Shown: positions 46,801 to 52,800 of the stretch, one piece after another
How the letters are laid out: every line of letters starts with the position of its first letter
How positions within the stretch are numbered: position 1 is the first letter of the stretch
NCBI RefSeq assembly: GCF_003018255.1
Contig: NZ_CP027440.1
DNA from: Escherichia coli
Lineage (GTDB): Bacteria > Pseudomonadota > Gammaproteobacteria > Enterobacterales > Enterobacteriaceae
Strand: one strand, 5' to 3'
DNA length: 64,000 nt
Program-made: the position numbers

Positions 46801-49800
46801 ACCAGCGGAAAAAATCCGCTCCGTATACCGTGAGAGTGACATCGTACCGGGAGAACAGACAGCCATCAGCATACTGAAGCAGCGCACAAAAAATATTGCG
46901 CTGCCACTTCACGTCCACCAGCAACAAAATCCACCACAGAAAAAGACGGTTGTCAGTATCGCCGTTGATCCGGAGTCTCCTGAATCGTTCATGAGGCGGC
47001 CTAAACGTCGCCGTTGGGTTAATGAGAAATACACGCGCTGGGTAAAGACACAGCCGTGTGCGTGTTGTGGTAAGCCAGCTGACGATCCGCATCACCTGAT
47101 TGGTCATGGTCAGGGGGGAATGGGAACAAAGGCCCACGATATTTTCACGCTACCGTTGTGCCGGGAACATCACAACGAACTTCATGCTGACCCGCTGGAG
47201 TTTGAGAAAAAGTACGGCTCTCAGGTTGAGTTAATTTTTCGTTTTCTTGAGCACGCCTTTGCAACTGGCGTGCTCGGGTAAAAGAGGTGACTGATGCTCA
47301 TAGAGTTGGTTTTACCTTACCCGCCGACGGTGAACACTTACTGGCGACGCCGTGGCAGCACATATTTTGTATCAAAAGCCGGGGAGCGTTATCGCCGGGC
47401 AGTGGCGCTTATTGTTCGCCAGCAGCGGCTGAAATTAAGCCTGTCCGGAAGGCTGGCGATAAAGGTGATTGCAGAGCCACCGGATAAGCGTCGTCGCGAC
47501 CTGGACAATATCCTGAAAGCACCGCTGGATGCGCTGACGCACGCGGGGTTGTTAATGGACGATGAGCAGTTTGATGAAATCAATATTGTACGTGGAAAGC
47601 CAGTATCTGGTGGACGTCTGGGGGTGAAGATTTACCCCATAATGCTTGAAGGGCAGGTCAAAAAATGAAACTGGAAGATTTACCGAAATACTACTCCCCA
47701 AAATCCCCTGGCCTGACCGATGCATCGGCCTCAACGTCAAAAGATGCGCTGAGTATCACTGATGTGATGGCCGCGCAGGGCATGACACAGAATCGGGCTG
47801 AGATGGGGTTTTCTGCGTTCCTTGGGAAAATGGGCATTAGTATGAATGACAGAGAGCGGGCAACAGAATTGCTGACAGAATATGCACTCAGTCGGTGTGA
47901 TCGCGTGGCGGCGTTAAGAAAACTCCCGGCAGAAATAAAACCGGCAGTGATGCGTATTATGGCTTCGTATGCGTTTGAAGATTATGCCCGTAGCGCGGCG
48001 AGCAAAAAACAGTGCCCCTGCTGTCACGGAAAAAAATTTATTGAAAGCGAGGTTTTTACAAACAAGATCCAGTATCCGGATGGTAAGCCGCCAGTGTGGG
48101 CAAAGTGCACAAAAGGCGTGTATCCGTCTTACTGGGAGGAATGGAAAAAAGTCAGGGAGGTGGTAAAAGTTGCCTGTCCGGAGTGTGGCGGAAAGGGGGA
48201 GGTTTCCACCGCCTGTAAAGATTGTCGTGGGCGCGGTGTTGCCATTCATCGTGAAGAGTCTGAAAAACGGGGTATGCCTGTTATCAGGGACTGCCAGCGT
48301 TGTGGTGGTCGTGGCTATGAAAGATTGCCGTCAACAGAGGCATTTAATGCTATATGCGAGGTGACAAACCAGATAACACGCGCGTCATGGGAAAAAACAG
48401 TTAAGAAATTCTATGATGCGCTGGTGAGCAAGTTTGATATTGAGGAAGCATGGGCTGAGAGGCAGTTAAAAAAGGTAACCAGGTAACAAGGTTGATTTTT
48501 CCGGAATCTGTGGTAAATTAGCCCTAACGATGGGCGTTTTATGCCTGACGTTGGAAGACTTTTTACACCCGTCGCCAGGCGGGTTTTTTATGACTGAAAT
48601 CACGCCAGTACAGTAAACGCGCTGGCGGCGGTGAATACCGGTCTTTCAGCTTGCTGGCTTTTTCGACAAGAGTTATTGGTATGTCACGTTAACCGGAAAA
48701 GGGAAAAAGACATGCTGAAACAGCAGGATATGACCGAAACCGCCAGAGTGGTGTTTAATGAATTAAGTGCCACCGCATCGGCGACAGTCGGGGAGATTGC
48801 ACAGAATACTTACCTTTCACGCGAACGCTGTCAGTTAATACTGACCCAGCTTGTTATGGCGGGTCTGGCAGACTATCAGTTCGGTTGTTACAGACGCCTT
48901 CAGTCCTGAAGGCTTTTTTATTTGTGGTAAATGGGCGGCTGGTGGGTGTTAGGGGCACTCACCAGCCATCTGCTCATGCGTTGGGGTCACAAGCAAACCT
49001 CAGGCCCACTGCTTTGCGCAAAAGCAGAATGAGCCTATCAGAGACAGGCTTAATGATCCATGCTTAATACTGTAAAAATATCCAGTTGTGAGTTAATCAA
49101 CGCTGATTGCCTGGAATTTATCCAGACCTTACCGGAAAACTCTGTCGATCTGATAGTCACAGACCCGCCATACTTTAAAGTGAAGCCCGAGGGCTGGGAT
49201 AACCAGTGGAAGGGCGACGATGATTACCTGAAGTGGCTGGACCAGTGTCTGGCGCAGTTCTGGCGGGTGCTGAAACCTGCCGGAAGTCTTTACCTGTTCT
49301 GTGGCCATCGCCTGGCATCTGACATTGAAATCATGATGCGTGAACGCTTCAGTGTGCTGAACCATATTATCTGGGCAAAGCCGTCCGGACGCTGGAACGG
49401 GTGCAACAAGGAAAGCCTGAGGGCGTATTTCCCCGCCACAGAGCGCATTCTGTTCGCGGAACATTATCAGGGGCCGTATCGTCCGAAAGATGCCGGGTAT
49501 GAGGCGAAGGGCAGGGCACTGAAACAGCATGTGATGGCTCCGCTGATTGCTTACTTTCGTGATGCGCGCGCTGCCCTGGGGATAACGGCAAAACAGATAG
49601 TGGATGCCACAGGAAAGAAAAACATGGTGTCGCACTGGTTCAGTGCCAGTCAGTGGCAGCTGCCGGACGAAAGTGATTATCTGAAATTACAGGCGCTGTT
49701 TGCCCGGGTGGCAGAAGAGAAGCATCAGCGGGGTGAACTGGAAAAGCCCCACCACCAGCTGCTGGAGACGTATACTTCACTGAACCGGCAGTATGCGGAA

Positions 49801-52800
49801 CTGCAGAGTGAATATAAGCATCTGCGGCGGTATTTTGGCGTGACGGCGCAGGTGCCGTACACGGATGTGTGGACGCATAAACCGGTGCAGTACTATCCCG
49901 GGAAACATCCGTGCGAAAAACCGGCAGAAATGCTGCAGCAGATAATCAGTGCGAGCAGTCGTCCGGGTGACCTGGTTGCAGATTTCTTCATGGGGTCGGG
50001 TTCGACAGTCAAAGCCGCGATGGCGCTGGGGCGTCGTGCAACTGGCGTTGAGCTGGAGACTGAACGTTTTGAGCAGACGGTCAGGGAAGTTCAGGATTTA
50101 GCCAGTCAGAACGGATGATATTGCAGGATTAGTTACGTACCGTTATTATCCTGCGCCCGGCCCTTTAGCTCAGTGGTGAGAGCGAGCGACTCATAATCGC
50201 CAGGTCGCTGGTTCAAATCCAGCAAGGGCCACCATATCACATACCGCCATTAGCTCATCGGGACAGAGCGCCAGCCTTCGAAGCTGGCTGCGCGGGGTTC
50301 GAGCCCCCGATGGCGGTCCATTATCGGTATTCAGCGTTGTTAGCTCAGCCGGACAGAGCAATTGCCTTCTAAGCAATCGGTCACTGGTTCGAATCCAGTA
50401 CAACGCGCCATATTTATTTACCTGGCTCGCTTTTGCGGGCCTTTTTTATATCTGCGCCGGGTCTGGTGCTGATTACTTCAGCCAAAAGGAACACCTGTAT
50501 ATGAAGTGTATATTATTTAAATGGGTACTGTGCCTGTTACTGGGTTTTTCTTCGGTATCCTATTCCCGGGAATTTACGATAGACTTTTCGACTCAACAAA
50601 GTTATGTCTCTTCGTTAAATAGTATACGGACAGAGATATCGACCCCTCTTGAACATATATCTCAGGGGACCACATCGGTGTCTGTTATTAACCACACCCC
50701 GCCGGGCAGTTATTTTGCTGTGGATATACGAGGGCTTGATGTCTATCAGGCGCGTTTTGACCATCTTCGTCTGATTATTGAGCAAAATAATTTATATGTG
50801 GCCGGGTTCGTTAATACGGCAACAAATACTTTCTACCGTTTTTCAGATTTTACACATATATCAGTGCCCGGTGTGACAACGGTTTCCATGACAACGGACA
50901 GCAGTTATACCACTCTGCAACGTGTCGCAGCGCTGGAACGTTCCGGAATGCAAATCAGTCGTCACTCACTGGTTTCATCATATCTGGCGTTAATGGAGTT
51001 CAGTGGTAATACAATGACCAGAGATGCATCCAGAGCAGTTCTGCGTTTTGTCACTGTCACAGCAGAAGCCTTACGCTTCAGGCAGATACAGAGAGAATTT
51101 CGTCAGGCACTGTCTGAAACTGCTCCTGTGTATACGATGACGCCGGGAGACGTGGACCTCACTCTGAACTGGGGGCGAATCAGCAATGTGCTTCCGGAGT
51201 ATCGGGGAGAGGATGGTGTCAGAGTGGGGAGAATATCCTTTAATAATATATCAGCGATACTGGGTACTGTGGCCGTTATACTGAATTGCCATCATCAGGG
51301 GGCGCGCTCTGTTCGCGCCGTGAATGAAGAGAGTCAACCAGAATGTCAGATAACTGGCGACAGGCCCGTTATAAAAATAAACAATACATTATGGGAAAGT
51401 AATACAGCAGCAGCGTTTCTGAACAGAAAGTCACAGTTTTTATATACAACGGGTAAATAAAGGAGTTAAGTATGAAGAAGATGTTTATGGCGGTTTTATT
51501 TGCATTAGTTTCTGTTAATGCAATGGCGGCGGATTGTGCTAAAGGTAAAATTGAGTTTTCCAAGTATAATGAGGATGACACATTTACAGTGAAGGTTGAC
51601 GGGAAAGAATACTGGACCAGTCGCTGGAATCTGCAACCGTTACTGCAAAGTGCTCAGCTGACAGGAATGACTGTCACAATCAAATCCAGTACCTGTGAAT
51701 CAGGCTCCGGATTTGCTGAAGTGCAGTTTAATAATGACTGAGGCATAACCTGATTCGTGGTATGTGGGTAACAAGTGTAATCTGTGTCACAATTCAGTCA
51801 GTTGACAGTTGCCTGTCAGACTGAGCATTTGTTAAAAAAATTTCGCATGGTGAATCCCCCTGTGCGGAGGGGCGACTGGTGTATAAGGTGTCATCTCTGA
51901 CGACAACCTGGAACGAGATACGCGGGTTCAGGGACACCGGACTGAACTCACCGGGAGGCACCCGGCACCATGTACATGATGATACAGAAATGCGGCTTCA
52001 GCCCCTCTCCGGAGGGGCTTTTTATCTGAATGATTCTGTTATTTTCGCCCGTATGGGCATATTTCCAGAATGCAGCGATGATTAAAACACTTATCTGTGA
52101 TATTTCCTGTGTTTGCAGGTCATTCCTGGCTGCTTTTAATTAAATTCCAGACGTTTTTATTAAATGGGGTCACGTTGTAAATGGTGACGGGGAGCTCTTT
52201 TTCATTGAGTATTATGCCTGTCCGGGTTGGTGTAAAAATACAGCCCGGAGGGAGGAAGATATCAGACTGATACCATAATATTAATTTTATGTTACGCCAT
52301 ATGGCTGAAAATGATATGTCACATGCTGGCTGGATTACCGTATCAATCACTATCCAGTTCATTTGCTTTCCTTATTTTCTTAAGGTTTTAAATGATGCCA
52401 TAAATTATAGGTGATGTTTTGAAAGCAATCTGTCAGCCTGAGTTGTTTTTCTGGTGTCGTTTATTCTTTGTTTAAAATAAGAGGGCAATTTTAAATTGTC
52501 GGCGTTTTTTTGTTATATAAGAGACATGGTTTTTTATAGCGTGTTTTTTATGTGTTACATGATTGTGTATTCCGGATAATTACTTTGCTGGCGGCAGGAG
52601 AGGTTATGACATTTAAACACTACGATGTGGTCAGGGCGGCATCGCCGTCAGACCTTGCTGAACGACTGACACAAAAACTGAAGGAGGGCTGGCAGCCATT
52701 TGGCAGTCCGGTGGCCATCACGCCTTATACCCTGATGCAGGCCATTGCGGCGGAAGGTGATGTCACCACACCAGTGGCGGTGACCGGTAATGAGGGTAAG

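Follow-up and report, generated by a model that had tools for sequence, protein, structure and literature searches.

The locus described here raises the question of what an orphan DNA methyltransferase gene does among the late genes of a Shiga toxin (Stx) prophage, directly upstream of the toxin genes. The window analysed is a 64,000-nucleotide (nt) chromosome segment of Escherichia coli (contig NZ_CP027440.1 of assembly GCF_003018255.1) with a lambda-like, long-tailed Stx2a prophage of approximately 48 kb, flanked by potC and potB; the prophage part of the window spans the 30.6 kb of positions 33354-64000 and contains 75 GATC sites. Its late region shares 99.66% identity with that of strain 00-3076, while the chromosomal part of the window differs (97.6% identity). 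The gene in question (49060-50118, + strand) encodes a protein of 352 amino acids, which is probably an active orthologue of M.EcoGII and M.EcoGI; its Q-dependent late expression would hypermethylate phage DNA before packaging and thus confer a broad anti-restriction effect. The observations of an earlier note on this DNA, which had described the gene as an orphan adenine methyltransferase that may protect phage DNA from restriction or modulate gene expression, were confirmed, and its interpretation could be upheld in part only.

The methyltransferase and its target specificity

The listing of open reading frames (ORFs) recovered the methylase gene with the same coordinates, strand and ATG start as had been given before. 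Its product was assigned to the M.EcoGII family of beta-class N6-adenine DNA methyltransferases on Pfam, motif, homology and model evidence. The only Pfam family reported is PF01555 (N6_N4_Mtase), which covers residues 29-340 (E-value 2.9e-43). The DPPY tetrapeptide (motif IV) occupies residues 35-38 (49162-49173), and the S-adenosylmethionine-binding FxGxG motif (motif I), in the form FMGSG, is found at residues 310-314 (49987-50001). The N-terminal location of motif IV and the C-terminal location of motif I place the enzyme in the beta class. The previous description of the protein as an N6-adenine methyltransferase with a DPPY motif is therefore correct, and both catalytic motifs were intact on closer alignment.

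In the AlphaFold2 model (predicted local distance difference test score, pLDDT, of 91.5), the Rossmann core is interrupted by a helical insert (residues 147-253) composed of helices 147-173, 177-184, 190-194, 204-223 and 234-253. Alignments with solved structures break into an N-terminal block (8-114) and a C-terminal block (281-341) with this long insert between them, and the Foldseek matches (CcrM, M.BceJIV, M.MboIIA and M.RsrI) are confined to the catalytic core. The layout of the model is that published for M.EcoGII, i.e., a Rossmann domain and a helical-bundle recognition domain, with a charged helical linker.

The protein (WP_064579151.1, present as an exact match on 184 contigs) is identical to M.EcoGII at 326 of 348 residues (94%) over its full length; the M.EcoGII sequence used in this comparison was machine-read from supplementary table S1 of PMC11551740 and contains a few obvious reading errors. 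Both proteins fall into the same 90%-identity cluster, which has 5932 members. An exact look-up of the corrected M.EcoGII sequence gave no match. A natural sequence (L036), taken as a stand-in for the M.EcoGII/M.EcoGI loci of E. coli O104:H4, is 98.8% identical to M.EcoGII and 96% identical to the window methylase, which confirms that the residues differing from M.EcoGII are real variants. The window methylase also shares 98% amino acid identity with the enzyme of phage 1720a-02, named a "very similar" family member by Murray et al. (2018; PMC5778455), who demonstrated biochemically that M.EcoGII and M.EcoGI methylate adenine whatever the surrounding sequence. These two non-specific enzymes share 333 of 349 residues (95%, 16 differences) and methylate up to 86% of deoxyadenosines in vivo and 99% in vitro. 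Neither is expressed in its native lysogen, and constitutive expression of either is harmful. SUPREM, a reconstructed ancestor, was reported to be non-site-specific as well (Ochiai et al., 2024), and since it is only 71% identical to the window methylase, the latter lies deep inside the non-specific clade.

By homology to M.EcoGII as well as M.EcoGI, the helical target-recognition insert is expected to confer no sequence specificity, which would make any adenine a possible target. The view of the earlier note that the sequence does not reveal the target specificity was thus not upheld: the closest characterised enzymes are non-specific, and identities of ~94% to M.EcoGII and 98% to the 1720a-02 enzyme point to the absence of any specificity.

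The term orphan proved appropriate, because the RefSeq annotation of a near-identical whole prophage contains, from the integrase to the potB junction, neither a restriction endonuclease nor a second methyltransferase. PADLOC gave matches to methyltransferase models only, and with no endonuclease gene beside it the methylase does not qualify as part of a type II restriction-modification system. What had been noticed for the immediate surroundings of the gene, whose neighbors are a winged-helix gene and tRNA genes, therefore applies to the whole prophage.

Proposed late expression and role, and their alternatives

The placement of the methylase gene in a presumed Q-dependent late transcript is well supported by the promoter, terminator and gene-order anatomy. 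Upstream of it lies a gene (47665-48486, + strand) encoding a Q-type late antiterminator of 273 amino acids (PHROG 127/25523, "anti-termination protein Q-like", E-value 1e-113; "antitermination protein" in RefSeq), which carries CxxC motifs and is much longer than lambda Q (207 amino acids). Directly after this gene, a pR'-like late promoter that includes a sigma-dependent pause element (48492-48534, + strand) was read from the sequence. It consists of TTGATT (48492-48497), a spacer of 16 nt, TGgTAAATT (48511-48519), a further 6 nt and AACGATGGG (48526-48534). Lambda pR' is composed of TTGACT, 17 nt, TAAATT, 6 nt and AACGATGGG, the -10 hexamer, the 6-nt spacing and the pause element being common to both. 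The AACGAT element of lambda induces a sigma-dependent pause, at which Q loads. A generic promoter scan overlooked the pR'-like promoter, because only 8 of 12 positions match. The late transcript would start near 48526.

Two intrinsic terminators separate this promoter from the methylase gene. The first, tR'-like, is a 7-bp GC hairpin followed by a T run (48567-48590, + strand; -12 kcal/mol), and the predicted terminated pR' RNA is ~65 nt long. A hairpin with a T run is found ~490 nt before the methylase gene in every Q class, and the sequence upstream of it varies with the Q type (75 loci); at least four different Q types precede the same methylase module among related loci. The second terminator (48896-48919, + strand; -10.5 kcal/mol) overlaps the stop codon of the winged-helix gene. 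All E. coli-type loci share its stem (GCCTTC/GAAGGC) and T run and vary only in the inner stem and loop; in loci of other genera the terminator is not evident. Between the second terminator and the methylase ATG, the promoter scan revealed no sigma-70-like promoter on the + strand.

Arrest of pR' transcripts at these two terminators would explain the published silence of M.EcoGI and M.EcoGII in lysogens. The same terminator anatomy would account for the single-molecule real-time (SMRT) methylome of E. coli O145:H28 RM13514, in which GATC and CTGCAG methylation only was recorded; this strain carries a 99.4% identical copy of the methylase gene (megablast).

Downstream of the methylase gene, the following elements were distinguished on the + strand: (i) a tRNA cluster (50159-50410; ARAGORN) with a CAT anticodon (Ile in RefSeq), Arg-TCG and Arg-TCT; (ii) an intrinsic terminator (50424-50447; -13.8 kcal/mol, z-score -5.1); (iii) stx2A and stx2B (50501-51741; Stx2a, from the ORF listing and RefSeq), the next genes of the same transcription unit; and (iv) a fourth terminator after stx2B. 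The location of the gene downstream of pR' and upstream of the tRNA-stx cluster, as proposed from the first inspection, agrees with this map. The tRNA genes follow the methylase gene in 64 of 74 related loci, with or without stx, and stx2AB in only 8; the tRNA cluster therefore belongs to the methylase module and not to stx. The order Q, small ORF, methylase, lysis genes recurs in E. coli, Salmonella, Klebsiella, Buttiauxella, Scandinavium, Lelliottia, Citrobacter and Rosenbergiella, and more distant relatives of the methylase (54-63% identity) are likewise encoded just before lysis genes. In the literature, we found no paper with post-induction transcript data for the methylase gene and none tying M.EcoGII to lambdoid late operons.

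The proposed course of events is as follows. In the lysogen, the methylase would be silent, as pR' is the sole promoter reading into the gene and its transcripts would end at tR' or at the second terminator. Upon induction, Q would make RNA polymerase terminator-resistant, leading to read-through into the methylase gene, whose product would be synthesised alongside the tRNAs, Stx2, and the proteins for lysis and morphogenesis during phage DNA replication. The concatemeric phage DNA would become heavily modified with N6-methyladenine (m6A) shortly before packaging. Progeny genomes would then be shielded in the next host from those type I, II and III restriction enzymes that adenine methylation inhibits, and possibly from other methylation-reading defences, and the toxic activity would reach the host chromosome only in an already doomed cell. 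Three components of this scheme, i.e., non-specific activity, silence in lysogens and toxicity, come from the literature and were measured on M.EcoGII and M.EcoGI, not on the window allele; from these and from the anatomy of the locus we infer Q-dependent expression, hypermethylated virion DNA and an anti-restriction benefit. An anti-restriction role was suggested by Murray et al. (PMC5778455), and a 2025 review groups M.EcoGII-type enzymes with Mom of phage Mu. Of the two roles considered in the earlier note, restriction protection thus appears the most likely one, and modulation of gene expression is disfavored by the silence of the homologues in lysogens.

Several points weigh against the anti-restriction role or the activity on which it depends. 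The 933W-type Stx2a phages (933W, PA28, Min27, the O104:H4 phage and others) retain just the last 111 nt of the methylase gene, and the loss of the gene from this lineage shows that the methylase is dispensable. The remnant is contained in a 50-amino-acid ORF annotated as "DNA methyltransferase", situated between Q933 and the tRNA genes (2459-2611 in the phage PA28 locus, L002, and in ~214 other phage records), and the junction of the recombination with the Q933-pR' module lies inside the methylase gene. No convincing or conserved Shine-Dalgarno sequence precedes the methylase ATG in the alignment of the leader described below, and the start region is predicted to be paired; translation of the methylase may therefore be poor or conditional. 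Relative to the closest M.EcoGII-like natural sequence there are fifteen substitutions, six of which are located in the recognition domain (160-237). Moreover, hypermethylated DNA would be a target of m6A-dependent type IV enzymes, and M.EcoGII has no known biological function according to Ochiai et al. (2024).

It is conceivable, though unlikely, that the targets are host nucleic acids, so that late methylation of the host chromosome, of RNA (mRNA or the phage tRNAs encoded next to the gene) or of both would shut down or re-programme the dying cell. In vitro, M.EcoGII accepts single-stranded DNA, DNA:RNA hybrids and RNA as substrates; its expression slows growth, and the methylase gene adjoins tRNA genes in most of the loci, as described above. 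However, the activity of M.EcoGII on RNA is ~100-fold weaker than that on DNA (V0 of 0.12 vs. 11.1; supplementary table S3 of PMC11551740), and since lysis occurs soon after late expression, re-programming of the host would bring little benefit.

An orphan methyltransferase with a defined target, Dam-like or recognizing a new motif, could instead tune lysogeny, induction or stx2 expression via particular sites, which we regard as distinctly improbable. No Pfam match to Dam-type GATC methyltransferases (PF02086, MethyltransfD12; phage Dam, PF05869) was obtained, and the motif order is that of the beta class, not the alpha class expected for PF02086; the scores against the YhdJ (NF008572; 114.5 bits) and CcrM (NF050803; 71.4 bits) equivalogs are far under the NCBIfam cut-offs of 292 and 830, respectively. 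The closest characterised enzymes are non-specific, and the homologues leave no methylation signature in lysogens. The effect of host Dam on the stability of 933W lysogeny, as reported in papers citing Murphy (2008), and the six substitutions in the recognition domain relative to M.EcoGII-like proteins are in line with such a function, but a gene expressed only after Q has acted cannot regulate the maintenance of lysogeny.

Using megablast, the methylase gene was found in 2025 of 5426 complete E. coli genomes (37%), in up to seven copies per genome, nearly all of them chromosomal. Among 79 copies (the window and IMG/VR loci), the median ratio of nonsynonymous to synonymous substitution rates (dN/dS) was 0.09-0.11 (1600 pairs), with DPPY retained by 78 of them and FMGSG by 77. 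A ratio of about 0.1 together with the retained catalytic motifs indicates purifying selection without decay. The weakest of the alternatives, that the gene is inert cargo, intact, effectively unexpressed and hitch-hiking in a mosaic late region, could draw on the two upstream terminators, the missing Shine-Dalgarno sequence, the paired start region and the loss from the epidemiologically successful 933W-type phages, yet it is very improbable given this selection, the abundance of the gene and the retention of its position and conserved leader across at least eight genera. Taken together, the three alternatives receive about a fifth of our confidence, and protection of phage DNA by late, non-specific methylation remains the probable role.

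The structured leader and the winged-helix gene

The earlier note was silent on how common this characterised family is, on the two terminators after pR', and on the winged-helix gene and structured leader that precede the methylase gene. The leader (129 nt; 48931-49059, + strand) extends from the second terminator to the ATG, its last paired base being position -1 of the methylase start codon. Leader identity between E. coli and six other genera amounts to 81-85%, compared with 71-79% for the flanking coding sequences. The minimum free energy of the leader is -61.7 kcal/mol (z-score -3.27), and RNAalifold gave a two-domain structure whose last helix pairs bases through -1 of the start codon. 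In the alignment, 97.4% of cells are paired, compensatory changes occur in 10 of 35 pairs and none of 500 shuffles was as good, as counted in a model-fitted alignment that includes distant copies, leans to the model and represents few independent events; slid controls were 28-39% paired.

The covariance model of this structure (R1) also matches upstream of a 63% identical methylase gene (60 bits) and of a 72% identical one from Rosenbergiella (105 bits). A further match lies in phage lambda (45022-45143; 1223-1344 of locus L086), ~43 nt upstream of the S holin gene (31 bits, E-value ~1e-6); this copy is diverged, has compensatory changes in the main hairpin and is not accompanied by a methylase gene. 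One locus (L091) retains both the winged-helix gene and the leader, with the methylase gene deleted. The model has no match in the 933W-type phage, and no Rfam 15 family matches the leader. A pattern scan of genome contigs for the leader was loose and gave mostly chance matches; of the matches listed, 80 loci were examined with the model and only two, from E. albertii and Rosenbergiella, proved real, and these numbers do not constitute a census. A coding origin of the leader (60-amino-acid ORF, 48885-49067) was rejected, as relatives differ by one-base indels and the ORF is lost in other genera. One contig (L104, Logan SRR8137545), a version of the E. coli locus in which every C is read as T (GC content of 0.28), is evidently assembled from bisulfite-converted reads, constitutes an artefact of the public collection and was discarded.

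The 5' arm of the main leader hairpin contains a Chi site (GCTGGTGG; 48938-48945, + strand), which is invariant in seven aligned enterobacterial genera and which the L102 and lambda copies lack. Across the prophage part of the window, the + strand carries 8 Chi sites and the - strand carries 4. The leader may act as RNA (a translation gate or processing site) or partly as DNA.

The winged-helix gene (48712-48909, + strand) encodes a stand-alone protein of 65 amino acids (phrog_331; named "TrmB family transcriptional regulator" by NCBI). It precedes the methylase start by 347-349 nt in almost all loci of sufficient length (364 nt in one case), and persists in Rosenbergiella at just 37.5% identity. 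A relationship to lambda orf-64 was considered and not found. A tentative proposal is that the winged-helix protein, the leader and the methylase form a regulated module of lambdoid late operons, with the leader representing an undescribed cis-regulatory RNA family. Such a leader would gate translation or processing, so that the toxic non-specific enzyme is made at the right time or dose only. The conserved leader and its winged-helix partner are the only elements of this locus that look undescribed.

Apart from these elements, an Rfam STnc100 small RNA (51816-52031, + strand; 158 bits, E-value 1.6e-36) was detected directly after stx2B, ending at a terminator near 52000-52019. The prophage also encodes RelE and RelB, a toxin-antitoxin pair, and has a Hok/Gef gene as well as an iraM pseudogene (52039-52362, - strand). 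Five related loci from Salmonella and Klebsiella prophages (L087 and L090-L093) encode up to three methyltransferases each: the nin region contributes those of the phage Dam (PF05869) and C5-cytosine (PF00145) types, and an M.EcoGII-type enzyme is encoded after Q.

Significance and comparison with known systems

The methylase belongs to a family that is already characterised, very common and known in Stx2 phages, and an M.EcoGII-type enzyme is sold commercially. A close M.EcoGII relative in the usual late-gene position of lambda-like prophages is thus an ordinary finding, which as stated adds little, and homology answers the question of specificity: none is predicted. Of further use is the arrangement of pR' and two terminators, which offers a testable explanation of the silence of M.EcoGII-type genes in lysogens and ties the methylase to the Q switch controlling Stx2. 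In addition, the enzyme is kept by long-tailed Stx2a phages such as the window prophage and lost by those of the 933W type, which predicts differing host ranges under restriction pressure, with a bearing on the spread of stx2.

Among enzymes of solved structure, M.BceJIV (8urk, GTWWAC), CcrM (6pbd, GANTC), M.RsrI and M.MboIIA share the Rossmann core and motif order with the window methylase (target-normalised TM-scores of 0.55-0.77), but they are sequence-specific and only 19-23% identical to it, and its insert (147-253) is without a solved counterpart (query-normalised TM-score of ~0.5). T4 Dam, P1 Dmt (which has a role in packaging) and HP1/VT2 Dam are, like the window methylase, orphan adenine methyltransferases carried by phages; unlike it, they belong to families PF02086 or PF05869 and are GATC-specific. 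A parallel to the proposed function is provided by phage Mu Mom and the alpha-class enzymes of the M.HaeV/Hia5 type, which are late, silent in lysogens, broad in their modification and toxic if mis-expressed; however, Mom is an unrelated protein with a different chemistry, and the M.HaeV/Hia5 type has the opposite motif order.

The nearest characterised counterparts are M.EcoGII and M.EcoGI from prophages of E. coli O104:H4 C227-11, which have in common with the window methylase the beta-class motif order, a length of ~350 amino acids, the helical insert, and the prophage-borne, orphan state. The window methylase differs from M.EcoGII by ~19 substitutions and another C-terminal tail (ASQNG instead of IV; 352 vs. 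349 amino acids), both length classes being common (39 loci each), and from both enzymes in its location in an Stx2a prophage, directly upstream of stx2. This location is matched in Stx2 phage 1720a-02 (KF030445), where the order is Q, small ORF, methylase, stx2; the two methylases share 98% amino acid and 97.8% nucleotide sequence identity, but that of 1720a-02 is paired with another Q antiterminator, of 126 amino acids.

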